Below the pieces are notes generated by a model that had not been told where the DNA came from, did no database searches, and worked only from the letters and a program-made list of their open reading frames with translations. Shown one piece after another: positions 14,280-64,000 of a stretch of 64,000 bases of DNA (position 1 is its first letter; each line of letters opens with the position of its first letter). The stretch spans positions 45,324,001 to 45,388,000 of the forward strand of contig NC_086108.1 of assembly GCF_963921235.1 (NCBI RefSeq). The letters are read 5' to 3'. The position numbers were made by a program, and so were the translations under genes. This DNA comes from Mobula hypostoma. Taxonomy: Eukaryota.

Positions 14280-16555
14280 CAACAAATAAATCTAAGCATG
14301 CTGGATTTTTGCATTTTTAATACGATTATCAAATTCGCTGTGCAAATTTTGCAAATGGACGCCCTGTACTTGTTACAGAAGAGATGTGGTTACAGGGTGA
14401 CCTAGGTTGGGAACTAAATATTCATATTTAGAAATGACAAGCAAAAAGCAAAAGAAGGTGGGTGGCTCTTAAATGAAAGCTAAACACTGAGCAATAGTGA
14501 GGAAGGACACTAATTCAGAACATCAAGATTTAGAATAAGCATTGGTGGCACTATGAAATGCTAAGGCACAGAAAGCACTGGTGGGATTCATCTAGTAGAC
14601 ATGCATGTAAGAAGTGTTCTGCAGTGATAGAGATTGCCAAAACATATCAGTAATAAAACTGGAGCATGAATTCTGGAGGGAGACCAAAACTTTGAGGAGC
14701 CAGGCTATCCTCATTTGGGATACAATGAGAAAGGGCTCATTTGTAATTTTATTGTGCATGGTGCTTCAGGGGAAATGAGCACAATAAGAAAGCTTAAATA
14801 AGGTACAAAGTGAAGTAATTTGATCTGAAACTAGTGTACAAATTTTAAACAAAGAATGCTATGAAGGTGGGAAAAGTAAGAGTCTGCCTTGGTAGATTGA
14901 GAAGATTCATTAAAATACTTGATAGTTAAGTGGGAATAACTAGTACTTAAGCAAAGAATGATAGGAACTGTAATAGTTTTACATTCCTTTCTTGTATGAA
15001 AGAAAAACAAAGAAAAAAATGATCCAATGATGGGTTGGAAAAGAAGCTACAAATTGTATAAGATCCAAAGTCCAGAATGAATGCATATAAACTTTCTGAA
15101 AAAGTAGTAAGCCTTGTGAATGGGAGCATTTTAGAATTCAGTCAAAAAGGTGCAAGAGAGGAGAAATAGAATATGAGAGTAAACTTGCAAGAACATAACT
15201 GTAGTAATAAGTAAAGAGAAAAAAGAATCGTGAAGACAAATGTATACCTCTCAAAGTAAGTAATGGAAGAATTTATTATGGGGAAGGAAAGAAAATGGCA
15301 GAGCAATTAAAAAAATACTTTGATTCTGTCTTTTTGGAAAAGGGGTGCTAATTACTTCCTAGAAATGCCAGGGAACCAAGAGTCAAATAAAAAGGAAGAA
15401 TTAAAGGAAATTAGTACCAGTAAAAAGTATGTACTAAAGAAATAGAGACTGAAAGCCTAAAAGAGAGGAAGCCACGGAAGTAATTGATACTTTGGTTGTC
15501 ATCTTCTAAAATTTTACAGTTTATGGAGGAGGACATTTTTTATATATTGTGAAGAATCCACAAGAGGCTTCAAGGTGATTTATATTAAAAACAATTAAGC
15601 GAGTTGTCAAACTAGAGTTTGGAAGAATCTGAGGGAGTCTTATTGAAGCATATAAAATTCTAATAGGATTTGCAGATGTACACTCAGTGTACACTTTATT
15701 AGGTACCTCAGGTACCTCCTGTACCAAATAAAGTGACCACTGAGTATATGTTCATGGTCTTCAGTTGCTGTATCCCGTCCATTTCAAGGTTTAACGTGTT
15801 GTGCGTTCAGAGATGCTCTTCTGCACACTGCAGTTGCAACACACAGTTATTTGAGTTACTGTCACCTTCCTGTTACTTTGAATAAGTTTGGTCATTCTCC
15901 TATGACCTCGCTCATTAACAAGGCATTTTCATCCACAGAATTGCCACTAGTTTCTCACACCATTCTCTGAAAACTCTAGAGACAGCATGAACATCCCAGG
16001 AGATCAGCAGTTTCTGAGATACTCAATTCACTTTTTCTGGTTCCAGCAATCACTCCATGGTCAAAGTCACCTCGATCACATTTCTTCACTATTCTGATAT
16101 TTGTTCTGAACAACAAATGAACCTCCTGACCACGTCTGCATGCTTTTATGCATTGAGTTGTTGCCATTTGATTGGCTGATTAGTTAGTTGCATTAACGAG
16201 CAGGTGCACAAGTGTACCTAATAAAGTAACCACAGAGTGTATATGAGACGGATGTTTCAAATGGTTGACAGTTAGCCTGATTTGAAAACACTCTCAGGAT
16301 ATACAGGATAACGTTTCGGACTAAGGTGAGGAGAAATTGCTTTGCTTAGAAGATTGTAAACCAATGGAATACTTTGCCACAAAAAAATTGGTGGAGATCA
16401 GGTTGTTGAATGTACTTAAGATGTTACATAGATTTCTGAACACAGAAGGCATCAAGAGATAACGAGATAGAGGATCAGTCACTATCATACTGAATGGTGA
16501 AACCACTTATTAGGGCTGATAAATCTTCTCCTGCCCTCTTTTCTATGTTTCTGTA
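14280..16555 (+). mobile_element. Highly decayed CR1 LINE interrupted by a Tc1-type element
   Basis: Remnants include VTEEMWLQGD, KYFDSVF and a 3' end cttctcctgccctcttttctatgtttct. No intact ORF. Confidence 0.6.
15681..16239 (-). mobile_element. Non-autonomous Tc1-derived element (MITE-like)
   Basis: TA-flanked TIRs CACTCAGTGTACACTTTATTAGGTAC and GTACCTAATAAAGTAACCACAGAGTG. Contains a transposase HTH remnant DFDHGVIAGTRKSELSISETADLLG (ORF 15976-16167). Confidence 0.8.
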
Positions 16556-18569: not shown

Positions 18570-20217
18570 TAGTGGCATGCAAAAGTTTGGGTACCCTGTC
18601 AAAATTTCTGTTACTGTGAATAGCTAAGCGTGTAAAAAAATGACCGGATTTCCAAAAGGCATAAAGTTAAAGATGACACATTTCTTTAATAATTTAAGTA
18701 AGATTACTTTTTTATTCCCATCTTTTACAGTTTCAAAATAACAAAAAAGGAAAAGGGCCCGAAGCAAAAGTTTGGGCACCCTGCATGGACAGTACTTAGT
18801 AACACCCCCTTTGACAAGTATCACAGCTTGTAAATGCTTTCTGTAGCCAGCTAAGAGTCTTTCAATTCTTGTTTGGAGAATTTTCACCCATTCTTCCTTG
18901 CAAAAGGCTTCTAGTTCTGTGAGATTCTTGGGCTGTCTTGCATTCGCTGTTCTTTTGAGGTCTATCCACAGATTCTCGATGATGTTTAGGTCAGGGGACT
19001 GTGAGGGTCATGGCAAAACCTTCAGCTTGCGCCTCTTGAGGTAGCCCATTGTGGATTTTGAGGTGTGTTTCGGATAGTCATACAATTTGTCCCATTATCA
19101 TTGATCATTATCCTGTTGTAGAAGCCATCCTCTTTTCACCTTCAGCTTTTTTACAGGTAGTGTGATGTTTGCTTCCAGAATTTGCTGGTATTTAATTGAA
19201 TTCATTCTTCCCTCTACCAGTGAAATGTTCCCCGTGCCACTGGCTGCAACACAAGCCCAAAGCATGATCGATCTACCCCGGTGCTTAACAGTTGGAGAGG
19301 TGTTCTTTTCATGAAACTCTGCACCCTTTTTTCTCCAAACATACCTTTGCTCATTGCGGCCAAAAAGTTCTAATTTAACTTCATCAGTCCACAAGACTTG
19401 TTTCCAAAATACATCAGGCTTGTTTAGATGTTTCTTTGCAAACTTCTGACGCTGAATTTGTGGTGAGGACGCAGGAAAGGTTTTCTTCTGATGACTCTTC
19501 CATGAAGGTCATATTTGTACAGGTGTCACTGCACAGTAGAACAGTGCACCACCACTTCATCTGCTAAATCTTCCTGAGGGTCTTTTGCAGTCAAACTGGG
19601 GTCTTGATTTGCCTTTCTAGCAATCCTATGAGCAGTTCTCTTGGAAAGTTTTCTTTGTCTTCCAGACCTCAGCTTGACCTCCACCGTTTCTGTTAACTGC
19701 CATTTCTTAATTACATTATGAACTGAGGAAACAGCTACATGAAAATGCTTTGCTATCTTCTTTTCGCCTTCTCCTGCTTTGTGGGCATCATTTATTTTAA
19801 TTTTCAGAGTGCTAGGCAGCTGTTTAGAGGAGTCCATGGCTGCTGATTGTTGGGACAAGGTTTGAGGAGTCAGGGTATTTATAAAGCTTTGAAATTTGCA
19901 CCATCTGGCCTTTCCTAATGATGACTGTGAACAAGCCATAGCCCTAACAAGCTAATGAAGGTCTGAGACCTTGGGAAAAGTTATCTGAGAGCTCAAATCT
20001 CTTGGGGTGCCCAAACTTTTGCATGGTGCTCCTTTCCTTGTTATCACTCTAAAATTGTACAAAACAAAAATAATACACTAATCTTGCTTAAAATGTTGAA
20101 AAGAATGTTTCGTCTTTAACTTTATGACTTTTGGAGATCAGTTCATCTTCTACTCACTTTACTATTCACAGTAACAGAAATTTTGACCAGGGGTGCCCAA
20201 ACTTTTTCATGCCACTG
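18570..20217 (-). mobile_element. Full-length Tc1 transposon (IR/DR type) with inactivated transposase
   Basis: TA-flanked inverted repeats of about 210 bp, each with an internal repeat of CAAAAGTTTGGGCACCC. Transposase pieces: MDSSKQL... HTH (ORF 19526-19939), WTDEVKLELFG, LQQDND and SPDLNIIENLW (DDE motifs). Disrupted by frameshifts and an insertion of about 30 bp near 19076-19105. Confidence 0.93.
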
Positions 20218-24007: not shown

Positions 24008-24196
24008 TGTTGTGTTCTTATTTTTATACGTACCATGGGTTAACAATAAAGAATCATATTCTGGAAGAATTAGAATTTTATTTATAATAACAGAACCAAA
24101 CCATGTTTTTACCAAGCCATGCTCTAGATCATTCTAACATTTCTGCGCATGCTCAGAACTCTTTCCAATCACGTTCTGACACGTCATATCACCACA
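24008..24196 (-). repeat. 3' LTR
   Basis: TG...CA termini. Differs from 26175-26364 by about 18 substitutions and 1 indel (manual count). Preceded on the minus strand by the purine tract AAGGAAAGGAA (PPT, about 24200-24210). Confidence 0.9.
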
Positions 24197-24481
24197 TATT
24201 CCTTTCCTTAAAAAGAAAAACAATTAGCAACATTAACCAAACAAATGCATAATTTAACATGTTTCTATCAGTCTCGCTGGGGGTTTACGAACACGACTAG
24301 ACCTTCTAAGTGGTTCACACAGTTCCTCTGTGTCATTGTTATTTCCATGTTTTATCTGGTCTGCATCAGTTCACTGAAACTCTGAAGTTGGCTCTTTCTT
24401 GAGGCCTTTGCAATTTCTTCTTAACACTGCCCCGCCTTCTGTTTGGACCATGTATGATCTGGGTTGTACTATAAGTATTGT

Positions 24482-24850
24482 AGCTTTCTTAATTCTTTCA
24501 CTTCCATTTGTATTGAAATACGAATCTTCTTCATCTAATTCATTCATTAACCGTGTAATCTCTTTTTTATGCTGAGACTTCATCATTTCAATAAAACTTC
24601 TCAATTCCTTCACTTGTGCTTTCACTTCTTCAGTTGGATCCTGATTCTTGTCACTCTTTGGCTACAGATCAGTATTGTACTGTATCGGCAAGTTTGGCTT
24701 CTATCCTCCTGCAGAGGTGAGATTGTGATGGAATGCATGGCCCATTGATGCATGAGCATTACTTCCAGAGGGCAAAATTGCAACTCCTGGTTTTGGTGGC
24801 AATGCTTCATCAGATGCTGGTAACAAAGGGATGGGTCTGGGAGCTTTCTT
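24482..24850 (-). pseudogene. SH3KBP1: Captured intronless fragment of SH3KBP1/CIN85-like (CD2AP family) C-terminus
   Basis: Reads KKAPRPIPLLPASDEALPPKPG...*KPNLPIQYNTDL*PKSDKNQDPTEEVKAQVKELRSFIEMMKSQHKKEITRLMNELDEE, then KIRISIQMEV in a shifted frame, then ERIKKA. The recalled CIN85 end is LPPKPG...[53 protein letters not shown]. Confidence 0.85.
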
Positions 24851-26158
24851 TATGACTTCATACCCTTTCATCAAGTCACTGTATTCTGACTCTGTGTGAC
24901 TGTCCAAGACTAATACTCTTTTTCATCAAATTCAGTCTCTCACAGGCAGATAAACCCAGTATTGACTGTACATTCCTTGACACTACCACAAATGAAAGCA
25001 TGAGCACAATATTTTTGTGCGATACTTTTGCCTCACATGTTCCTTTAACTGGAAAGTCTGCACCTGAATACCCAGTTACTTTTATATTTGTCTTATGTAA
25101 CCTTGGTCTTGGCTTTAATGCATTAAACTCAGATTCTGCTAGAACATTTACTTACGCCCCAGTAGCAAGTTTAAACAGAATATTGTTTTGGTTCACTTGC
25201 AATGGAATATTCCAGTCATTCTTACTTTGTTTGTTTTTACAAAGCACATCTATATAACACTCCTCAAATTCGTTTTCTAGCACAGCATTTACTTGTTTTA
25301 TTTTCTTTCTACTTCTTTAACAGCATGAAAAATGATTACTCTTACCAGTCGTTGCACATTTTCCCTTACTCTGGACACTGTTTTGGTCGATGCTGCTGCC
25401 CACAGCCATCACACATTTTTTTTTTATCTCAGATGACGTCTTGCTCTCTGTCAGTTTTGTTGTCGTTTTATTATTTCTTCTAATATGTTCGCACTTTTTT
25501 ACAGCATCTACGTGGCAGCTTTCAGTGAAAAGTTCTGTAGCCTGCGGCGTCGTGGTTTCCGAAGTTTTGCAAAGCATCAAAACTTTTTCTAAGTCTAAAT
25601 CTTGTTCTCTTAACAGTCTTTCTCTCAGACCATTATCCTGAATGCCACAAACAATTCTGTCTTTAACGAGAGAGTCTGTCAGTTCTGCAAACTCACATCT
25701 TTTGCTCCAGCGTCTCAATTCAGTAACATATTGATCAATTGTTTCAGCCAATTTCTGCGTACATTTGAAAAAGTTATACTGCTCATACATCACATTACGC
25801 TTCAGTATACAAAATGCTTCAAATTTGTCCATTATCGACTTCAAATTTAAATTATCTCCATCTTCAAAACAAAGTGATTATATATCTTAATTGTGTCGTC
25901 ACCTATTACGTGGAGTAGAAGCGCAGCTTTCATTTTTTCCCCTTTTTTTATCTGCTTCAATGGCCAATAAATGTATTTCAAAACACTGCTTGAATTTTTT
26001 TCCAGTTCTCAGCTACATTCCCAGTCAGCTGAAGTGTCAGTGGAGGTTGCAAACCTTCCATTTTTAAAACTGTTAGCAAACACTAAAACAGTTCAAACTC
26101 TTTTTTTCTTCGATTATCTTCGACTCTTCTGTGTTCGAAAATATATTATTCTTCCAGA

Positions 26159-26174
26159 CCGACTTCTGCCACCA
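26159..26174 (-). promoter_or_regulatory. Primer-binding site, tRNA-Leu-like
   Basis: TGGTGGCAGAAGTCGG directly follows the 5' LTR and is close to the complement of the tRNA-Leu 3' end (TGGTGTCAGAAGTGGG). Confidence 0.7.
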
Positions 26175-26364
26175 CATTGTGTTCTTATTTTTAGATGTAC
26201 TGTAGGTTAACAATAAAGAATCGTATTCTGGAAGAATTAAAACTTTTATTTACAGCAACAAAACCAAACCACGTTTTTACCAAGCCATGTTCCAGATCAT
26301 TCTAACATTTCTGCGCATGCTCAGAACTCTTTCCAATCATGTTCTGACACATCATATCACCACA
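26175..26364 (-). repeat. 5' LTR
   Basis: Direct repeat of 24008-24196. Begins TGTGGTGATATG on the minus strand. Confidence 0.9.
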
Positions 26365-26411: not shown

Positions 26412-26930
26412 GATTGTGTGCAGTTCTGGTCACTTAACTATAGGAAGGATATCAGTAAGATTGAAAGAGTGCAGAGAAGATTTACTAGGATGTTGCCGGG
26501 TCTTCAGGAGTTGAGTTACAGGGAAAGATTGAGCAGGTTAGGATGTTATTCCTTGGAGCATAAAAGAATGAGAGGGGATTTGATAGAGATTTACAAAATT
26601 ATGAGAGGTATAGACAGGCTCTTTCCACTTAGGTTAGGAGAGAGAAATATGAGAGGACATGGCTTTAGGGTGAAAGGGGAAAGGTTTAGGGGGAACAACT
26701 TCACTCAGAAAGTGGTGGGAGTGTGGCACGAACTGCCATCTGACGTGGTAAATGTGGTCTCACTCTTAAGTTTTAAGAATAAATTGGATAGGTACGTGGA
26801 TGGGAGAGGTCTGGAGGGTTATGGACTGGATGCAGGTCAATGGGACTAGCAGAATAAAGTTTCAGCACAGACTAGAAGGGCCAACTGGCCTGTTTTCTGT
26901 GCTGTAGTGTTCTATGTTCTATGGTTCTAT
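26412..26930 (+). mobile_element. CR1 LINE 3' fragment
   Basis: ORF 26418-26849 QFWSLNYRKDISKIERVQRRFTRM...FTQKVVGVWHELP. Tail ttctatgttctatggttcta. Confidence 0.92.
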
Positions 26931-38039: not shown

Positions 38040-39830
38040 TTTGATTACCCCTAACACAGACCTTCCCTTCATCATGGAAGTGGACGTCTTGGACATTGGA
38101 GTGGGTGCAGTGTTGTCTTAATGGACACCTTCAGACAATAAACTGCAGCCGTGTGCATTCTTTTCCAGGCAGCTATCCCTCACTGAGGTGAACAACAACA
38201 CTGGAAATAGAGGGCTGCGGGTGGTCAAGTTGGTTCTGGAGGACTGACGTTATTGCCTTGAGGGGGCCAAGAATCCTTTTATGGTGTGGACAGACCACAG
38301 GAACCCAGCTTATATTCAGGAGGCCAAGTGTTTGAATTCCAGGCAGGACAGGTGGTCTCTTTTCTTTAACTGTTTTAATTTCATCCTAATCTATTGACTG
38401 GGGTCAAATAACCAGACGCCAGGTGCTTTATGATGAACCTGAACGAGAGGAGCAGCCTAGCACCGTTTTTCCCCAAGCCAAGGTGATAATACCAATTCAC
38501 CGGGAAATCAACACACTTGTTCGCAAGGCCCAGGCACAAAGGGAGATTCCTCAGAACGGCCCTCCAAGTTGGCTATTCATTCCAAGTCTCATCTCAGGTT
38601 CTTCAATGGGGACATGAATCGACAATGACCACGCACCCTGGGATTGCCAGGTTGCTTGAGTTCATTAAGACAAGATATTGGTGGCCTGGAATGGCGAGGG
38701 ATGTCTGTAAATATGTGCAGGTTTGTGGGCTGTTCGCCCTGAACAAGGAGCCCCACACCCACCCTCAAGCATTCCTTCTCCCTCTGCCTGTTCCAGAAAG
38801 ATGATGGTCTCACAGATCCATGGACATTGTCATGGGTCTTCCTCCTTCCAAGAGGAAGACTGTTATCATGGAAATTGTGGATTGTTTTTTGAAGGCCTGA
38901 AAATTCATCGCTTTGGACAGACTACCATCTGCAGCAGAGAGGGCTGAAATTGTCCTGCACCAAGTCTTCAGGATCCATGGTTTTCTGGTGGACGTTGTGT
39001 TGGATTGCGGTCCGCAATTCGTATCATGATTTTGGAGGGCGTTTTGCAAGCTGATCGGGGCAACAACAAGTTGTTCCTCTGGGCTTCACCTGCAGTCCAA
39101 CGAACAGACAGAGCGGGTGAACCCTAAGGTACCTGGCCTCTGAAAGACCAGATGAGTGGTACGTTCATTTGATGTGAACAGAGGTCGCCCACAACACTTT
39201 ACAGCATTCGGCGCATAGAAAGTCTCCTTTCAAATGCCAATTCAGGTATTCTCCACCACTCTTCCCTAAGCAAGAGGCTGAAGTTGGGGTTCCTGCTGCC
39301 AAAGATCTCGTCCAATGCTGCAAGGAGAAATGGACAAGGGCGAGGGAGATTTTGTTAGCTTCAACCCGAAAGGCTAAAATAAATGCTAACTGCAAGAGAA
39401 GACAGGGGCCAGCTTTTCAGCTTGGGCAACAGGTCTGGCTGTCAACTTAGGATTTGCCTTTCTGAGTAGAGTCCAAGAAATTGGCACCTAAGTTCATTGA
39501 ACCCTTTAGGATTCTCTGGAAAGCAAACCCGGTGGCTTACCCCAAAACCGTCAAAATCAATCCCACTTTCCATATTTCTAAATTAAAACCTGTGAACACC
39601 AGCCCTTTAGCCCCACCAACATCAGTCCCATCCCCCCCGGCCACCCCCAGGTGTGTTGATCAGGAACAGGTCTTCACTGTGAGAAGAATTTAGGATTCAT
39701 GAACTGTTTGGGGAGTTCAGCAGTTCCTTGTCGACTGGAAAAGATTCGGACATGAGGAACAATGCTGGGTTCCTGAAAGGGACATCTTGGATTTGGCTCA
39801 CTTCCATGACTATAAGCATCATTCCTCCGA
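38040..39830 (+). mobile_element. Decayed chromoviral Gypsy (Tf2/sushi-like) pol: RNase H, integrase, chromodomain
   Basis: PFIMEVDVLDIGVGAVLS (RNase H); HESTMTTHPGI...YWWPGMARDVCKYVQVCGLF (integrase zinc finger); LAPKFIEPF and INPTFHISKLKP (GPY/F); FTVRRI...FLVDWK...WVPERDILD (chromodomain). Confidence 0.88.
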
Positions 39831-40569: not shown

Positions 40570-41269
40570 CAATGTTCTCTCTAATTTTTAGTAGTCAGTG
40601 TGCGCAAAAATCTTATGTTGTGCAAATTTTTTTCCTGTGACAGAAGTATGTGCGCACTGAATGCACACATGGCACAGTTTATGTAGGTTTACAAAATATT
40701 TGACATAAAACTGCACAGAATAACAACAAAATAACATACATATTTAAGTCACTCAGTTATTTTTTCTCTCTCCTGTCTTTGGCATTTACCCATTCTTTGT
40801 AAACTCTATCTAGACTAATAGAACTTCCATCCAATTGATAGCTTTTGATTCTCATTAACATATCCAAATAACATTCACCTAAACGGTTTCTCAGCTGGTT
40901 TTTGAGTTGATTCATTAGGCTAAAACCTCGTTCACAGTCCGCACTAGACGCAAGAAAGGTTCCCCCAATGTCCATCAACTGTGCAAGGTCAGAAAACTGT
41001 TCATTTTGAAGTACAAATGCCACCATTTGAGCAAAGTTTGAAATCAGTTTGGATTTAATTTTTTCTTGCATGGAAAATTTGAAACCATTAAACTGTCTAA
41101 CTATTTCAATATTTTCAGCTAGAAAATCATGATATTTTAGACATAAGGCATTAACTTGTTCATCGCCAAATGTGAAGTCACAATCTGCAATTGCGGAGAA
41201 ATCAAAAGCTGACCATTCTTGTACCTCATCTTCAGGAAATCTTTCTTCTAAATGAACACAAAGACTAAA
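40570..41269 (-). mobile_element. hAT transposon 3' part with dimerisation (hATC) domain
   Basis: ORF 40757-41356 contains TFLASSADCERGFSLMNQLKNQLRNRL...LDMLMRI. Terminus caatgttctctctaa at 40570. Confidence 0.82.
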
Positions 41270-41950
41270 CAGGTTTTCCCCGCCATCCAAAGGTAGAGTG
41301 TTCCCATGAAATGGTTCATAAGCCGGAATGTCGTAAAACGAAGAAGCAATTACCATTTATTTATATGGGAAAATTTTGTGAGTGTTCGCAGACCCAAAAG
41401 TAACCTATCAAATCATGCCAAATAACACATAAAACCTAAAATAACAGTAACATATAGTAAAAGCAGGAATGATATGATAAATACACAGCCTATATAAAGT
41501 AAAAATACTTTTCCACATTCATTGCCTGAACTATTCTCTGTAACAAAAATCTCACACAAGCGCTCTCGGCAAAAGCACGGCGCAAGTGCTCTCCAGTAAC
41601 TTTTAAGCTATGAAGCTGCCAAATCATACCAAATAACACGTAAAAATACACAATCGATATAAAGTAGAAATAATGTATGTACAGTGTACTATCACTTATC
41701 GGAATTGGGACAGCGCCGAGCACACTGATGATGGTGTGTTAGGCTGAGTCGTCGCAGGTTGGGCTGGTGCAGTGGCCCCCACCCTCCAGGCAGCGAACCA
41801 ATACCAATCCGTGAAGAATGCAGGGGTCCAGCAGTACCCGGGAGGCACACAGCACATCTTTAAGAAAAAAGCTGAAATAAACATGCTAATTAATTAGGTG
41901 CCACCCGGCGCGTAATTGTCGGCCCAGATCAGAGGTGATTGCTGATTGTA
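41270..41950. mobile_element. Probable Tigger/pogo-like non-autonomous element truncating the hAT ORF
   Basis: Begins caggttttcccc...gtgttcccatgaaa...gtcgtaaaacgaa and is CpG-rich. No matching right TIR seen. Confidence 0.45.
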
Positions 41951-43174: not shown

Positions 43175-44291
43175 GAAAACCATAGAAAAACTACAGCACA
43201 GAAACAGGCCTTTTGGCCCTTCTTGGCTGTGACAAACTATTTTCTGTCTAGTCCCACTGACCTGCACACGGACCGTATCCCTCCATACACCTCCCATCCA
43301 TGTATCTGTCCAATTTATTCTTAAATGTTAAAAAAGAACCCGCATTTACCACCTCGTCTGGCAGCTCATTCAACACTCCCACCACTCTCTGTGTAAAGAA
43401 GTCTCCCTTAATGTTCCCTTTAAACTTTTCCCCCTTCACCCTTAACCCATGCCCTCTGGTTTTTTTCTTCCTTTGCCTCAGTGGAAAAAGCCTGCTTGCA
43501 TTCATTCTATCTATACCCATCATAATTTCATATACCTCTATCAAATCTTCCCTCATTCTTCTACGCTCCAGGGAATAAAGTCCTAACCTATTCAACCTTT
43601 CTCTGTAACTCAGTTTCTCAAGTCCCGGCAACATCCTTGTAAACCTTCTCTGCACTCTTTCAACCTTATTAATATCCTTCCTGTAATTTGGTGACCAAAA
43701 CTGAACACAATTCTCCAGATTCGGCCTCATCAATGCCTTATACAACCTCATCATAACATTCCAGCTCTAATACTCAATACTTCGATTAATAAAGGCCAAT
43801 GTACCAAAAGCTCTCTTTACGACCCTATCTACCTGTGACGCCACTTTTAGGGAATTTTGTATCTGTATTCCCAGATCCCTCTGTTCCACTGCACTCCTCA
43901 GTGCCTTACCATTAACCCTATATGTTCTACGTTGGTTTGTCCTTCCAACGTGCAATACCTCACACTTGTCTGTATTAAACTTCATCTGCCATTTTTCAGC
44001 CCATTTTTCCAGCTGGTCCAAGTCCCTCTGCAGGCTCTGAAAACCATTAGTCACAGGCCTCCACTCTGAGAAGCAATTCTCTACTACCACTCTTTGGCTT
44101 CTTCCATTGAGCCAATGTCTAATCCAATTTACCACCTCTCCATGTATACCTAGCAACTGAATTTTCCTAACTAACCTCCCATGCGGGACCTTGTCAAAGG
44201 CCTTACTGAAGTCCATGTAGACAACATCCACTGCCTTCCCTTCATCCACTTTCCTGGTAACCTCCTCGAAAAACTCCAATAGATTGGTCAC
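43175..44291 (-). mobile_element. Relatively young CR1 LINE with internal RT deletion
   Basis: ORFs 43767-44291 (TNLLEFFEEV, YMDFSKAFDKVPH) and 43248-43754 (to GQWD). EWRPVTNG joins directly to FQSLQRDL. Confidence 0.92.
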
Positions 44292-50391: not shown

Positions 50392-53155
50392 TACCTGGGG
50401 AAAGCAACAGAGGCCATGCCTCTGGCACAGAGTCTGGCCCTATGGCTCAGAAGGGTAGGGAAAGGAAGAGGAAGGCAGTAGTGATAGGGGACTCTATAGT
50501 TAGGGGGTCAGACAGGCGATACTGTGGACGCAGGAAAGAAACTCGGATGGTAGTTTGCCTCCCAGGTGCCAGGGTCCGGGATGTTTCAGATCGCGTCCAA
50601 GGTATCCTGCAGCGGGAGGGAGAACAGCCAGAGGTCGTGGTACATATTGGTGCCAATGACATAGGTAGGAAAAGGGAAGAGGTCCTGAAAAAAGAGTATA
50701 AGGAGTTAGGAAGGAAGGTGAGAAGCAGGACCACAAAGGTAGTAATCTCGGGATTACTGCCTGTGCCACGCGACAGTAAGTATAGGAATAGAATGAGGTG
50801 GAGGATAAATGCGTGGCTGAGGGATTGGAGCAGGGGGCAGGGATTCAGATTTCTGGATCACTGGGACCTCTTTTGGGCCAGGTAACCTGTACAAAAAGGA
50901 CGGGTTGCACTTGAATTCCAAGGGGGACCAATATCCTGGCGGGGAGGTTTGCTAAGGTTACTGGGGGGGAGTTTAAACCAGAATTGTTGAGGGGTGGGAA
51001 CCGAACTGAAGAGACTGGAGAAGAGGAGGTTGGCTCACAAATAGAGAAAGCTTGTAGACAGTGTGAGAGGGAGCATAGGCAGGTGATAGAGAAGGGGCGT
51101 GCTCAGACCGAAGGTTTGAGATGCGTCTATTTTAACACAAGGAGTGTTGTGAACAAAGCGGATGAGCTTAGAGCGTGGATCAGTACTTGGAGCTATGATG
51201 TGGTGGCCATTACAAAGACTTCGATGGCTCAAGGACAGGAATGGTTACTTCAAATGCCGGGTTTTAGATGTTTCAGAAAGGACAGGGAGGGAGACAAAAG
51301 AGGTGGGGGTGTGGCACTGTTGATCAGAGATAGTGTCATGGCTGCAGAAAAGATGGACGCCATGGAGGGATTGTCTACGGAGTCTCTGTGGGTGGAGGTT
51401 AGGAACAGGAAGGGGTCAATAACTTTACCGGGTGTTTTTTACAGGCCGCCCAATAGTAACAGGGATATCGAGGAGCAGATAGGGAAACAGATCCTGGAAA
51501 GGTGTAATAATAACAGAGTTGTCGTGATGGGAGATTCTAATTTCCCAAATATCAATTGGCATCTCCCTAGAGCAAGGAGTTTAGATGGGGTGGAGTTTGT
51601 TAGGTGTGTTCAGGAAGGTTTCTTGACATAATATGTAGATAAGCCTACAAGAGGAGAGGCCATACTTGATTTGGTATTGGGAAATGAACCTGGTCAGGTG
51701 TCAGATCTCTCAGTGGGAGAGCATTTTGGAGATAGTGATCATAATTATATCTAATTTATGATAACATTGGAGAGAGATAGGAACAGACAAATTAGAAATG
51801 CATCTAATTGGAGTAAGGGGAATTATGAGGCTATCAGGCAGGAAATTGGAGGGTTAAATTGGAAACAGATGTTCTCAGCGAAAAGTAAGGAAGAAATGTG
51901 ACAAATGTTCAAGGGATATTTGTGTGGAGTTCTGCACAGATACATTCCAATGAGACAGGGAAGTTATGGTAGGGTACAGGAAACGCGGTGTACAAAGGCT
52001 GTAATAAATCTAGTCAAGTAGAAAAGAAAAGCTTACAAAAGGTTCAGAGAGCTAGGTAATGTTAGAAATCTAGAGGATTATAAGGATAATAGGAAGGAGT
52101 TTAAGAAAGAAATTAGGAGAGCCAGAAGGGGCCATGAGAAGGCCTTGGCGGACAGGATTAAGGAAAACCTCAAGGCATTCTACAAATACCTGAAGAGCAA
52201 GAGGATAAGAGGTGAGAGAATAGGACCAATCAAGTGTGACAGTGAAAAAGTGTGTATGGAACTGGAGGAGATAGCAGAGATACTTAATGAATACTTTGCT
52301 TCAGTATTCACTATGGAAAAGGATCTTAACGATTGTAGTAATGACTTACAGTGGACTGAAAAGCTTGAGCATGTAGATATTGAGAAAGAGGATGTGCTGG
52401 AGTTTTTGGAAAGCATCAAGTTGGACAAGATGTACCCCAGGGTACTGTGAGAGGCGAGGGAGGAGATTGCTGAGCTTCTAGCGATGGTCTTTGCATCATC
52501 AACGGGGATGGGAGAGGTTACAGAGGATTGGAGGGTTGCAGATGTTGTTTCTTTATTCAAGAAAGGGAGTACAGGTAGCCCAGGAAATTATAGACCAGTG
52601 AGTCTTACCTCAGTGGTTGGTAAGTTGATGGAGAATATCCTGAGAGGCAGGATTTATGAACATTTGGAGAGGTATACTATGATTAGGAATCGTCAGCACG
52701 GCTTTGTCAAAGGCAGGTTGTGCCTTACGAGCCTGACTGAATTTTTTGAGGATGTGACTAAACACATTGATGAAGGAAGAGCAGTAGATGTAGTGTATAT
52801 GGATTTCAGGAAGGCATTTGATAAGGTACCCCATGCGAGGCTTACAAAGAAAGTAAGGAGGCATGGGATGCAAGAGGACATTGCTTTGTGGATCCAGAAC
52901 AGGCTTGCCCACAGAAGGCAATGAGTTTTTTACTCAGAGAGTGTTGAGTGCGTGGAATGGGCTCTCGACAACGGTGATGGAGGCGGATACGATAGGGTCA
53001 TTTAAGAGACTTTTGGATTGGTGAAATATAAGATATAAAGCTTAGAAAAATAGAGGGCTATAGGTAAGCCTAGAAACTTCTAAAGTAGGGACATGTTCGG
53101 CACAACTTTGAGGGCCGATAGGCCTGTATTATGCTGTAGGTTTTCTATGTTTCTA
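50392..53155 (+). mobile_element. CR1 LINE with ORF1 esterase, ORF2 APE and N-terminal RT, internally deleted
   Basis: ORF1 SGNH motifs VVIGDSIVRG, CLPGARV, VVHIGANDI. APE motifs CVYFNTRS, FYRPP, VMGDSNFP. RT motif YMDFRKAFDKVPH. Jumps to the 3' end at about 52925 and ends in ttttctatgtttcta. Confidence 0.93.
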
Positions 53156-54772: not shown

Positions 54773-55096
54773 AGAGATAATGCCCAAGGTCATCTGAAGC
54801 AGTATGATTTCTTGATTATGATGCACTATTTGACATTGAACTAACGGTTTGTTTTAATGAATGTATCAATGAGAGGTAGAGAAGGAGGCAAGTTTAGCAA
54901 CGAAACGAGATTGGTGGTCAGTGTTGGAGGAACTAAACTCTTGATGAAGTATTACTTTATTTGTTTCTCACATGTCAAAATATACAGTGAAATATGTCGG
55001 CTGTGTCACAACCAACAGTGTCCGAGAGTGTGTTGGGGGCCTACAACTCACTAACACTAGAATGTGGAGGAAACTGGAGCAGCTGGAGGAAACAAA

Positions 55097-55236
55097 CGAC
55101 CATGGGGAGACGGTCCAAGCTCCTTACAGATGACCATGGGGAGACGGTCCAAGCTCCTTACAGACGACCATGGGGAGACGGTCCAAGCTCCTTACAGACG
55201 ACCATGGGGAGACGGTCCAAGCTCCTTACAGACGAC
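55097..55236. repeat. 34-bp minisatellite, about 4 copies
   Basis: Unit ACGACCATGGGGAGACGGTCCAAGCTCCTTACAG repeated head to tail. Confidence 0.92.
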
Positions 55237-56583
55237 ACACATCAAAGTTGCTGGTGAACGCAGCAGGCCAGGCAGCATCTATAGGAAGAGGCGCAGTCGA
55301 CGTTTCAGGCCGAGACCCTTCGTCAGGACTAACTGAAGGAAGAGTGAGTAAGGGATTTGAAAGCTGGAGGGGGAGGGGGAGATCCAAAATGATAGGAGAA
55401 GACAGGAGGGGGAGGGATGGAGCCGAGAGCTGGACAGGTGATAGGCAGAAGGGGATACGAGAGGATCATGGGACAGGAGGTCGGGGAAGAAAGACGGGGG
55501 GGGGTGGTGACCCAGAGGATGGGCAAGAGGTATATTCAGAGGGACAGAGGGAGAAAAAGGAGAGTGAGAGAAAGAATGTGTGCATAAAAAAGAGTAACAG
55601 ATGGGGTACGAGGGGGAGGTGGGGCCTAGCGGAAGTTAGAGAAGTCAATGTTCATGCCATCAGGTTGGAGGCTACCCATACGGAATATAAGGTGTTGTTC
55701 CTCCAACCTGAGTGTGGCTTCATCTTTACAGTAGAGGAGGCCGTGGATAGACATGTCAGAATGGGAATGGGATGTGGAATTAAAATGTGTGGCCACTGGG
55801 AGATCCTGCTTTCTCTGGCGGACAGAGCGTAGATGTTCAGCGAAGCGGTCTCCCAGTCTGCGTCGGGTCTCACCAATATATAAAAGGCCACATCGGGAGC
55901 ACCGGATGCAGTATATCACCCCAGTCGACTCACAGGTGAAGTGATGCCTCACCTGGAAGGACTGTTTGGGGCCCTGAATGGTGGTAAGGGAGGAAGTGTA
56001 AGGGCATGTGTAGCACTTGTTCCGCTTACACGGATAAGTGCCAGGAGGGAGATCAGTGGGGAGGGATGGGGGGACGAATGGACAAGGGAGTTGTGTAGGG
56101 AGCGATCCCTGCGGAATGCAGAGAGAGGGGGGGAGGGAAAGATATGCTTAGTGGTGGGATCCCGTTGGAGGTGGCGGAAGTTACGGAGAATAATATGTTG
56201 GACCCGGAGGCTGGTGGGGTGGTAGGTGAGGACCAGGGGAACCCTATTCCTAGTGGGGTGGTGGGAGGATGGAGTGAGAGCAGATGTACGTGAAATGGGG
56301 GAGATGCGTTTAAGAGCAGAGTTGATAGTGGAGGAAGGGAAGCCCCTTTCTTTAAAAAATGAAGATATCTCCCTCGTCCTAGAATGAAAAGCCTCATCCT
56401 GAGAGCAGATACGGCGGAGACGGAGGAATTGCGAGAAGGGGATGGCGTTTTTGCAAGAGACAGGGTGAGAAGAGGAATAGTCCAGATAGCTGTGAGAGTC
56501 AGTAGGCTTATAGTAGACATCAGTGGATAAGCTGTCTCCAGAGACAGAGACAGAAAGATCTAGAAAGGGGAGGGAGGTGTCGG
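55237..56583 (-). mobile_element. Penelope-like retroelement, 5'-truncated (RT thumb, GIY-YIG endonuclease, terminal repeat)
   Basis: ORF 55949-56608 LPFLDLSV...VYYKPTDSHSYLDYSSSHP...RLRRICS. ORF 55626-55952 VIYCIRCSRCGLLYIGETRRRLGDRFAEH. Flanked by ACAGACGAC on both sides. Confidence 0.93.
55295..55330 (-). ncRNA. Minimal type I hammerhead ribozyme in the Penelope terminal repeat
   Basis: Minus strand reads AGUC-CUGACGA-A-GGGU(CUCG)GCCU-GAAAC-GUC-GACU: both core boxes, stem I AGUC/GACU, stem II, palindromic ACGU stem III and a GUC cleavage triplet. Confidence 0.75.
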
Positions 56584-56779
56584 ACAGACGACCATGGGGA
56601 TTAAACATTAGTCTTACAGCTAGTGGTGTAAAGCGTTACGCTAAGCACTACACTACTGTGCCACCCCTCAGTGTGCGCAGGGGGCAAGAATCAGAGGAAG
56701 GAAGATAATCAGGAGGATGGCACAATTGGAGGAAAGTATGGGGGGAGAAAAGGCCTCTTGAAGGGACAGTGGAAATACA

Positions 56780-56983: not shown

Positions 56984-58116
56984 TGTCATACTGTGGTGGT
57001 TGGGAATGGACCCAAGTGCAAGACACGGACACTGAAGAACTAGGGATAGGACTAGGATAAAGGGTGAGAGCAAGGACATGGACACGAAAATCGGGAACCC
57101 GGAACAGGACTGGACAAGAGAGCTAGGAGCCTGGGCTTGGACTCCGAGCCAGAGACTGGACAAGGACCCAGTACCTGGGTCTTGCCTCTGGCTCGGACCC
57201 TAGAACTAGGCAAAGACGAGGCTTGGCAGGCAGGCAGGACGAGGCTGGAGTCTTCAGGCTTGAGGCTAGAGGCTAGAGATGAGGCTTGGCAGGAGGCAGG
57301 AGGCTGGAGTCTTCAGGCTTGAGGCTAGAGGCTAGAGACTTGAGGCGAGGCTTGGCAGGAGGCAGGAGGCTAGAGACTTGAGGCGAGGCGAGGCTTGGCA
57401 GGAGGTAGAAGGCTAGAAACGTGAGGCGAGGCTTGGCAGGAGGCAGGAGGCTGGAGTCTTCAGGCTTGAGGCTAGGCAGTCCCCTCCTGGGCAGGGCGCG
57501 GATCACCACCCGATGGAGGCATGGGACAGGAAGGGACAGAACCAACTGCAGATAACGAACAAGATGGTCTGGCTTACCCGACGGAGGCAAGGGACAGGAA
57601 GGGACAGAACCAACCACAGGTAACAGCAAGACAGCCTGGCTTACCTGGGTGGAGGCAAGGGGCAGGAAGGGAGCTAGGTACAGGGTGGCTCCAGGACAAG
57701 ACTGCAGGCGAGACGAGGCGAGAGTTACCAGCAAGACAAGGCAAGACTTCAGGCAATGCAAGGCGAGACAAGAACTTCAGGAGAGACGAGAGTTACCGGC
57801 AAGACAAGGCAAGGCTTCTGGCAAAGCAAGGTGAGACGAGAACTTCAGGCGAGGCAAGAGTTACCGGCAAGACAAGGCAGGGCTTCAGGTGAGGAAACAG
57901 AAGGCAGAGGAAGGGATACAAGGAGTAAGGACAAGAACAATCCAGCAGCTACGCCCTGGTCTCTGGAGGTATTTATGCAGCCAGCCCCAATGAGCATCAG
58001 CTGACTCAATTAGAGCTCAACAAGAACAGAAACAGGGTAGACAGGAAAACCTGGAGCAAGGGTCGATGGACCAAACCGTGAACCTGAATATGGACTTCAC
58101 GGACCGGACCATGACA
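56984..58116 (-). mobile_element. Solo LTR, probably Gypsy, with internal tandem repeats
   Basis: TGTCAT...ATGACA termini. 5-bp flanks CACCC / CAGCC. TATA-like CATAAATA on the minus strand at about 57970. Internal arrays of gaggcttggcaggaggcag and gcaagacaaggc. Confidence 0.75.
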
Positions 58117-61579: not shown

Positions 61580-64000
61580 TGAAAAATAAGCTAAGTGAAA
61601 TTCAAGAAGCTTTTGAATTGTTTTACAAAACTCTTAATTCCAAATTTCCGGGGGAAGCATAACCCAAAATGACACCTTCCTGAATTTTCTAGAGTTACTC
61701 ACTTTAAGCAAAGAACAAAATAGAACGATGACTGCTGACATAACTGAAGCTGAACTAAAAACTACAATTAGTCGGCTTAAATTAAGCAAGTCACCAGGAT
61801 CAGATGGATATACGGCAGAATGGTATAAAGAGTTTAGAAGTGAGTTAATTCCTGTCTCACTCCCCACACTGAACTGGGCTCTAAGAAAGGCGCAAATGCC
61901 ACCCAACTGGAAGGAGGCGATAATCTCAGCTATGCCGAAAGAAGGCAAGGATAAAATGGAATGTGGGTCATTTAGACCAATATCTGTTCTTAATGTAGAT
62001 TATGGATTATTCACCTCCATCATGGCCAAACAATTAGAAGAGTTTCTACCCACACTGATACATAAGGATCAGATGGGTTTTATACAACAATGCCAAACAC
62101 AAGACAATATACGAAGGACACTTCACATTATGGATCATATACAAAAAAATAAAATTGAAGCAATAGTGATAAGAGTGGACGCTGAAAAGGCATTTGATTC
62201 GGTTAATTGGAATTTTCTTTACAGAGTTTTACATAGATTTGGTTTCCATGACACAATTATTAAAACTATACAGGCGCTATATGACAATCCTACTGCTAGG
62301 ATTAAAATCAATGGATATTTATCAAATAGTTTTACCCTAGAAAGGGGCATGAGACAGGGTTGTGCATGGTCACCACTACTCTTCGCATTATATCTGGAAC
62401 CATTAGCTCAATACGTCAGACAAAATGAAGATATCAGGGGAATTACTATTAAAGGGACAGAGCATAAATTGGCCTGTTACGCAGATGACATTTTGATCTA
62501 TCTAGGGCAACCAACATACTCTTTACCTAAATTGATGCAATCCTTTGAACAATATGGTCAATTATCAGGATACAAGATCAACATAGATAAAACCCAATTA
62601 CTTTCATATAACTATAGCCCTCCAAGAGAAATTGAAAGTAGATATCCCTGGGCATGGCAAATAGAGTCTTTCAAATATTTGGGCATCATTATGCCAAAAG
62701 ATTTGGCAAAATATCAGAATGCAATTATCCGCCTATATATAAAAGAAATTAAGGAAGATATAACAAGATGGAACCTAATTCTTTTTTTTAGTCTCAGTTC
62801 AAGGATTGAATCCATTAAAATGAATATATTACCCAGACTATTATATCTCTTTCAGAACCTACCAATAGAGATTAATCAGAATCAATTCAATGAATGGAAC
62901 AAAATGTTATCAAGATATATATGGCAAGGTAAAAGGCCTAGAGTTCGTCTCAAAACTTTGCAATTAGCCAAGGAAAAGGGGGGATGGGGCCTACCTTCTC
63001 TTAGAGATTACTATTTTGCAGTACAGTTGAGAGCTGTGATATGCTGGTGCAACCCATCATCTGACACTCAATTGAGGAGAGGATACTTTCCATCCACATA
63101 CAGGTAATTTTGGCTGATAACAACCTACAAAGTTACATAAATACTATTGATAAACCATGGGTGAAATGGACTCTTAAAATATGGAAAACTATTATAAAAG
63201 AATATAAACTAGAGGGAGATATTGCAATTCTTAAGTGGTGTGCATATGACTCGGATTTTACGCCGAATAAACTGGATGCTAGATTTAAAGACTGGACAGC
63301 TAAAGGAATAACAGTTCTTTGCAATATAATGAAAGAAGGAACACTGTTCAGTTTTGAAATGCTTAAAGAGAAACACTTATTAGAAAAAACAAGACTTTTA
63401 TCGGTATTTACAGATGCAACAGTATGTTAATAGGAGGGTTAAAAATGTAACCAAGGCAAGTACATGTTTGATAGAGCTAGAAAAGCATATAATTCAGATA
63501 ACGGTAGTAGAATCATTTCAAGTGCGTATAAGGGTTTGTCAAATCTTAAAACACATTCGACTTCATACATTAAAACAAAATGGGAGAAGGAAGGAGGGAT
63601 AATTATATCTGAGGAAGAATGGATAATAATATGGAGATATCAATGGAAGTGTACCAGTTCACAGAAATGGAGGGAGTTTGGATGGAAAAACTTGATGAGA
63701 TATTTTATTACACCCTCTCAGAAATCCCATTATGATAGTAACCTCCTTGTTTGCTGAAGAAATTGTGGAAATCAAAATGCAAACCAATATCATGTTTTCT
63801 GGGATTGCCCCATTATCAAAGACTATTGGGGTGGGATACACAAAGCTCTTTAAGGTATTAAATGTGAAATACCCTTCGAAAGTAAGACCATATATTTTGG
63901 GTATATACCTCAAGAATGGTTGAAAAGAGATAAATATTTAATGAATTTACTGCTGGTGGCTGGTAAAAAGACCCTTACCAGGAAATGGTTATCACAGAAG
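61580..64000 (+). mobile_element. L1/Tx1-clade LINE ORF2, 5'-truncated, runs off window end
   Basis: ORF 61728-63107: KSPGSDGYTAEWYK, FRPISVLNVDY, DAEKAFDSVNW, RQGCAWSPLLF, YADD. Frameshifted continuation to a CCHC-like C*RNCG...HVFWDC at about 63750-63810. Confidence 0.93.

Follow-up and report, generated by a model that had tools for sequence, protein, structure and literature searches.

Capture of host mRNAs by LTR retrotransposons has already been described in animals (Tan et al. 2016, Genome Res 26:1663, PMC5131818). This study reports LTR-mediated retrocopies (pseudo-LTR retrotransposons) in which a partial mRNA replaces the element's ORF, together with chimeras of two genes and secondary copying. 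Microsimilarity is given there for 25 of 29 junctions, with a median of 6 bp. For BLASTOPIA of Drosophila, the same text describes one preferred switch site that was reused by five independent captures. It also cites retroviral transduction, maize Bs1 and the HERV-K case of FAM8A1 as host mRNA captures.

Here, we describe a comparable locus in the window, i.e., the whole 64-kb stretch of Mobula DNA that was analysed. It is a dead Gypsy LTR element of 2.36 kb (24008-26364, minus strand) with a piece of the host gene SH3KBP1 (CIN85) between both of its LTRs. With the cases of PMC5131818, the ray locus shares the partial spliced mRNA between LTRs, the replaced ORF, the lack of poly(A) and target-site duplication, and a short shared junction sequence (7 nt at the ray 3' end). 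It also appears to share the later amplification and the chimeras of two host genes. The cases covered there are young copies of fly, mosquito, zebrafish, chicken and mammals, and the word "shark" occurs 0 times in that text. Unlike these, the ray capture is old, is found in more than one ray genus, is in frame at both ends in a sibling copy, and has both switch zones overlapping a repeat of the host gene. BLASTOPIA provides an earlier example of a Gypsy element whose switch point is A-rich and sequence-biased; there, one element site served five captures, whereas in the ray one capture involves a repeated host word. As in retroviral transduction, Bs1 and HERV-K FAM8A1 (as cited in PMC5131818), the host mRNA would have been copied by reverse transcriptase (RT) switching inside a particle; unlike in those systems, no envelope gene is seen in the ray copy and there is no sign of a cargo function. 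The element itself resembles K02A2.6-like Ty3/Gypsy elements of fishes and amphibians (P0017-P0052), with 49-69% identity over gag, protease, RT start and integrase tail. We found no literature on an SH3KBP1 capture in rays, subscription journals lying outside the coverage of the search.

Element and insert were identified by homology searches, and respective coordinates are collected in Table 1. Based on tblastn, residues 1-384 of the intact Gypsy polyprotein P0017 (its cluster mate carries the name Gypsy integrase-like in Astyanax) map to 24906-26052 (49% identical, E 6e-101), while residues 1200-1285 map to 24257-24535 (E 7e-12). Pfam reports nothing above cut-off in any of the six ORFs taken from the element and the adjoining window sequence, and the protease profile scores E 3e-4, below the Pfam cut-off, on the sibling P0005. 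The two LTRs match in 171 of 190 columns (17 transitions, 1 transversion, 1 gap; K2P 0.105). No target-site duplication of the element is visible in the 20-nt flanks (4-6 nt sought), and in so old a copy it may be decayed or recombined. Going by general element anatomy, we take 26155-26174 to be a putative primer-binding site.

Table 1. Features of the chimeric element, ordered along its own (minus) strand.
Feature	Position	Strand	Remarks
5' LTR	26175-26364	-	190 nt; TG start; last two letters TG, not CA; within-window repeat D11
Primer-binding-site-like stretch	26155-26174	-	directly behind 5' LTR; TGG start
Decayed gag and aspartic protease	24906-26061	-	stops and frameshifts; tblastn with P0017
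Protease-RT linker	24860-24922	-	ends where the window copy lacks 50 RT-start codons kept by P0005
Physical 5' junction of window copy	24858-24859	-	2 nt (GA) common to element- and host-type sequence
Captured spliced SH3KBP1 (CIN85) coding piece	24483-24859	-	end of proline-rich region and C-terminal coiled coil; two in-frame stops, two frameshifts
5' AAGAAAGCT	24842-24850	-	wholly host sequence; 6-9 nt inside insert
3' AAGAAAGCT	24482-24490	-	first letter host; middle 7 (24483-24489, AGAAAGC) host and element; last letter element
Integrase C-terminal tail to stop	24257-24482	-	decayed; tblastn with P0017
Polypurine tract AAGGAAAGGAATA	24197-24210	-	adjoins 3' LTR start
3' LTR	24008-24196	-	189 nt; TG...CA

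The domain order of the intact relatives P0017 and P0022 is protease-RT-RNaseH-integrase, and in the window the protease comes first and the integrase tail last. In all four intact relatives that were measured, the positions flanking the insert are 754-755 codons apart. That is, about 755 codons of RT-RNaseH-integrase are replaced in the window element, such that the internal ORF is replaced rather than interrupted. Unlike its K02A2.6-like relatives, the window copy is without RT core, RNase H and integrase core, and it is unable to move by itself. Among the relatives obtained, there is no intact parent element from a ray.

The SH3KBP1 origin of the insert, which the original prediction had named, is confirmed. 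With X placed at its two stops, 100 of 107 residues are identical to both Mobula SH3KBP1 proteins (97 for Pristis, 94 for Hemitrygon), and the insert matches the CIN85 coiled-coil entries 2N64 and 5ABS (E 9e-07). It is a partial copy in sense orientation and colinear with host RNA contigs. Since it runs unbroken across two points at which host isoforms differ (after QHK in P0084 and after ISLQ in P0014), the insert is spliced; from the protein sequences, these points are taken as exon borders. It was further claimed that the insert carries neither poly(A) nor 3' UTR and stops short of the host stop codon. This holds as well: neither is found in the insert, and the host RNA contigs add 13 nt (L-Q-S-K) between the last letter shared by host and element and the host stop. 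Given two stops and two frameshifts, a function of the window insert is unlikely.

To read the host side of the junctions, contigs of the public runs X1, X2, X5 and X6 (4 of the 24 listed) were aligned to window positions 24240-25100; the metagenomes X19 and X20 (share 0.04-0.06) were kept outside the comparison. Host transcript contigs come from X1 and X2, whose RNA label is the tool's guess. For two long ones (2189 nt in X1, 2001 nt in X2), the match to the window ends at 24856, from where they continue upstream as F-D-S-N-[AT]-A-K-V-K-D, as in the Mobula proteins. Both are identical to the window over 24810-24856, i.e., up to 6 nt past the 5' motif. All differences (12 over 314 nt in X1, 10 over 200 nt in X2) are located at 24809 or below, and thus the host carries the whole 5' 9-mer. 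At the 3' place, the host reads G-I-K-K-A-L-Q-S-K-stop and shows 8 of the 9 motif letters, compared to 9/9 at the 5' place. A motif at both corresponding positions of the parent mRNA, as implied by the original prediction, is therefore present in form of AAGAAAGC, and this rules out a target-site duplication. The motif pair is a host-internal repeat of batoid SH3KBP1, which itself encodes IKKA twice, 122 codons apart.

Within the window, the two AAGAAAGCT copies on the minus strand are 360 nt apart. A third copy is found at 14786 (plus strand); three copies per 64 kb are within chance (at least three in 12 of 100 shuffles). The 12-mers at the two motif places, ATAAAGAAAGCT and ATTAAGAAAGCT, are alike at 11 of 12 positions and both encode IKKA in a single frame, in agreement with what had been claimed. 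From the statement that identical motifs lie exactly 360 bp apart, positions and identity stand, while the exact spacing is a product of decay. That is, the IKKA-IKKA spacing is 366 nt in three of four host proteins measured (P0002, P0083, P0003; 357 nt in P0087) and the motif spacing is also 366 nt in the sibling P0005. Compared with host RNA or sibling contigs, the window insert is short of 5 nt (behind 24526) and of 1 nt (behind 24494), and the IKKA pair shares one frame at 360 nt because these two frameshifts cancel. The 5 nt are present in only 830/5327 (X5) and 3421/14987 (X6) of the depth, which may reflect a loss common to many copies or a contig-end effect.

We also assessed how often random pairs of places share a word. 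An exact 8-mer common to two given places within 20-30 nt is observed for 0.4-2.4% of random pairs and an exact 9-mer for 0.09-0.5%, where ranges result from 200,000 draws on each of three backgrounds (window, element, insert). The motif pairing at both switch zones is thus unusual, not extreme. Its overlap with both zones probably follows from the frequent use of lysine-rich, A-rich codons by host gene and element alike.

At the 3' junction, host and element do share sequence. Family contigs without the insert reach this junction via W-T-Q-K-A-T-V-L-E-E (among the matches listed, nine in X5 with agreement 0.98 and four in X6 with 0.97), and all four intact relatives measured read W-x-[KQ]-K-[AG]-T-V-L at the integrase-tail joint; the TIL of the window is a decayed T-V-L. 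Read by hand on the minus strand, the host loose end lies before 24495 (X1, X2) and the element loose end behind 24470 (X5, X6). Exactly 7 nt are common to the host mRNA and the family's integrase tail. Among 400,000 random element-insert point pairs, at least 7 shared letters occurred in 0.085% (0.00085). With these 7 nt, the 3' junction shows true microhomology.

The motif had also been placed at the 5' junction, where it is not found: the host match runs 6 nt beyond the 5' motif. In X6, element-type contigs match down to 24858 and host-type contigs up to 24859, an overlap of 2 nt with a random chance of 0.19. Six X6 contigs among the matches listed read Y-E followed by D-L-F-K-G-L-G-C-L-P, i.e., the RT start, from 24858. 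The sibling P0005 (Hemitrygon, XP_072897951.1) joins protease, the RT start MEQLEVIKK, SH3KBP1, GIKKA and TVLEEVQPRSY in one frame. It keeps 50 element codons before the insert that are absent from the window copy (a 50-residue alignment gap). Since P0005 retains these RT-start codons and the family's Y-E runs into the RT start, the YEV of the window is the product of the window copy's own deletion. In X2 and X6, joints also lead from 24859 and 24840 to 24865 across unknown letters; they would agree with copies in which more of this region is retained, but are no proof of them. The P0005 model (XP_072897951.1-3.1) is open over 321 residues, in frame at both junctions, and present under three NCBI protein accessions.

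Among the 66 relatives examined, 51 show the pattern at the RT-start place, with EVIKKI as the commonest 6-mer (10/51). At the protein level, EVIKK is found in P0005 and in 11 of these 51, while GVIQKI, NVIKEI and GVIAKI are found in the three intact relatives that are closest. The host 5' site is EVIKKA in Pristis and Hemitrygon and DVIKKA in Mobula. On this protein-level comparison, the return site was likely an in-frame match of RT and host of up to five codons, at an element site differing from the 3' one. The claim that the same microhomology served both junctions is thus not supported, given that the family contigs place the RT start at the 5' side and the integrase tail at the 3' side.

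Next, we consider the family to which the window copy belongs. In the two DNA runs, 1011 (X5) and 1020 (X6) contigs were aligned, mostly 90-95% alike, with as many as 42 X5 contigs covering a single insert position. At 24710 and 24803, they keep the window's letter as opposed to that of the host RNA. The host letter at 24803 accounts for a depth of 14.5/2456 (X5) and 0/20874 (X6), where summed contig depth is not equal to copy number. These values hint that copies far outnumber the host gene. The 15 listed joints stem from derivative copies with other internal deletions. Many diverged contigs as well as the derivative joints suggest that the chimera was recopied as a non-autonomous element. 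Deletion derivatives at 24396-24540 and 24678-24847 show, in both DNA runs, short pieces that resemble nearby sequence inverted, possibly strand switches during copying. An X1 contig of 133 nt (depth 3.6) is identical to 24442-24574, the RNA label of this run being a guess.

Siblings of the chimera are found in gene models of Hemitrygon and Hypanus. P0060 (Hypanus, XP_059819315.1) and P0016 (Hemitrygon, XP_072880776.1), annotated as RABEP1-like or uncharacterised, show the same protease followed by a RABEP1 piece and then the SH3KBP1 coiled coil. The Pfam family Rabaptin matches P0016 with E 5e-42 and P0060 with E 1e-38, and in P0016 RABEP1 resumes after the coiled coil. These gene models show serial capture of host genes. 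No further element-host chimera was found among 144 new representatives. With regard to age, where Pristis has T-V, both P0005 and the window agree with Mobula and Hemitrygon in reading M-G. P0005 keeps three residues, SDK, which 14 of 18 host proteins have and which are absent from all four of Hemitrygon and Hypanus; use of an alternative splice site would be another explanation for SDK. If P0005 and the window share one capture, these residues place it, presumably, after the sawfish split and before the split of devil rays and whiptail stingrays.

Taken together, we favour, with a probability of about 0.68, a direct capture by a double template switch at two different element sites, followed by amplification and further captures (RABEP1). 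We infer the following course. A pol-bearing Gypsy element would have packaged spliced SH3KBP1 mRNA beside its own RNA. During minus-strand synthesis, RT would have changed over from the integrase tail to the end of the host coding sequence at the 7 nt common to both, and 366-380 nt of host mRNA would then have been copied. Its return to the element RNA would have taken place at the RT start, where E-V-I-K-K corresponds to [ED]-V-I-K-K of the host (in protein; the nucleotide match is presumed). In this way, RT, RNase H and integrase would be replaced over about 755 codons, in frame at both ends. The chimera would then have multiplied as a non-autonomous element mobilised in trans, and the window copy would later have lost 50 RT codons before the insert (2-nt overlap) plus 5 and 1 nt inside of it. 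Some observations speak against this reading. It has to take the shared 8-mer at both switch zones as a coincidence (0.4-2.4% for random point pairs), and the later deletion that ends exactly at the insert start as a second one. The 5' homology is seen in protein only, where the closest relatives deviate from EVIKK, and longer SH3KBP1 copies upstream of 24859 may point to a different order of events.

Such an order would consist of two steps, i.e., a longer SH3KBP1 piece was captured and its 5' end was trimmed by a later switch at EVIKK between the chimera and its intact parent, the 3' junction being original. The mechanism, template switching, would be the same and the event order alone would differ. 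Six X6 contigs among the matches listed run from 24859 upstream into the decayed host sequence E-F-Y-S-N-V-A-K-V-K (agreement 0.89, with 5 differences to the loose end of the live mRNA), and longer SH3KBP1 copies thus exist. A serially recombining family, in which RABEP1 and SH3KBP1 pieces occur together in P0060 and P0016, also suits a history in steps. However, the longer copies are possibly LINE-made pseudogenes and, among the matches listed, are found in one run only, such that we consider this order unlikely. A LINE could also have acted on the element directly, by retroposition of SH3KBP1 mRNA with AAGAAAGCT as target-site duplication. The window is rich in LINE remnants (RVT_1 and endonuclease matches), and direct repeats are found on both sides of the insert. 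Still, the host mRNA has the motif at both places and its identity to the insert extends past the 5' repeat, poly(A) and 3' UTR are absent with the insert stopping 13 nt before the host stop, and intact relatives have 755 codons between the flanks. We therefore find retroposition hardly credible; the original preference for template switching over it is borne out by the host mRNA motif at both ends.

The original prediction had instead considered switching onto and off the host mRNA at a single site, within an already deleted element reading YEV-IKKA-TIL. In general form, an element pre-deleted from RT start to integrase tail would carry one motif, at which RT went out and came back, matching both host repeats. 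This would explain the twin motif without the 0.4-2.4% chance event. Near-single-site switching in and out may also occur in this family: in the gene model P0016, a 47-residue SH3KBP1 piece stands between RABEP1 residues whose distance in Narcine RABEP1 is about one codon. On the other hand, of about 2,000 places, the insertion would have had to fall on the very joint of the earlier deletion. The insert is skipped in none of the 15 listed joints, the 3' loose ends agree (0.97-0.98) on an intact integrase, and a direct join of RT and integrase is found in 0 of 231 proteins, a weak test given three ray elements only. For their Drosophila cases, Tan et al. (PMC5131818) report replacement and never interruption. 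An element with its RT start joined to the integrase tail would furthermore not read YEV, and the YEV form is contradicted by P0005 as well as by the Y-E-D-L-F of the family contigs. The specific form of the prediction is thus not supported, and single-site switching in general appears unlikely.

Rather than a coincidence, the purine word AAGAAAG could also be a signal. Similar to the element's polypurine tract (AAGGAAAGG), it might cause an RT pause or RNase H cut and thereby direct both jumps. We regard this as a long shot, and a literature search for a purine-rich switch hot spot gave nothing specific. If true, ray Gypsy elements would pick host fragments by motif, and the captures in the Mobula genome (SH3KBP1, RABEP1) would form a natural series for studying the sequence rules of template switching. 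Likewise, if the motif bias holds across captures, they would provide a vertebrate test set for the steering of RT switches. Independent of this, the junction anatomy is mostly resolved and ordinary: what looked like a target-site duplication is a host repeat plus one measured microhomology, with host and element sides of the junction read from public contigs. For annotation, it follows that the stingray SH3KBP1-like and RABEP1-like models XP_072897951.1, XP_072880776.1 and XP_059819315.1 are retrotransposon chimeras.

The window contains various other elements and repeats. Directly before the 5' LTR, a LINE 3' remnant, which we take to be of CR1 type, covers 26413-26895 (plus strand) and is 75-83% like 43202-43711 on the other strand. 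A faint integrase fragment of another LTR element is found at 38595-39116 (plus strand; 23-28% identical to P0017 and P0033). At 19098-19951 (minus strand), we observe a decayed Tc1-type transposase, for which the Sleeping Beauty HTH is just under cut-off (E 1e-10). The 199-residue open frame at 40757-41356 (minus strand) has no Pfam match and looks, in our view, like the end of a hAT-type transposase. Tandem arrays are located at 55092-55261 (34-nt unit) and 57204-57918 (degenerate purine-rich units of 14-68 nt). A GIY-YIG domain above cut-off (E 2e-05) at 55626-56635 (minus strand) adjoins an RT-like frame, presumably a Penelope-like element by its anatomy. Two more LINE remnants are found on the plus strand, one with endonuclease and RT pieces (50915-52924) and one with an open RT frame of 489 residues (61638-63107, E 6e-43).
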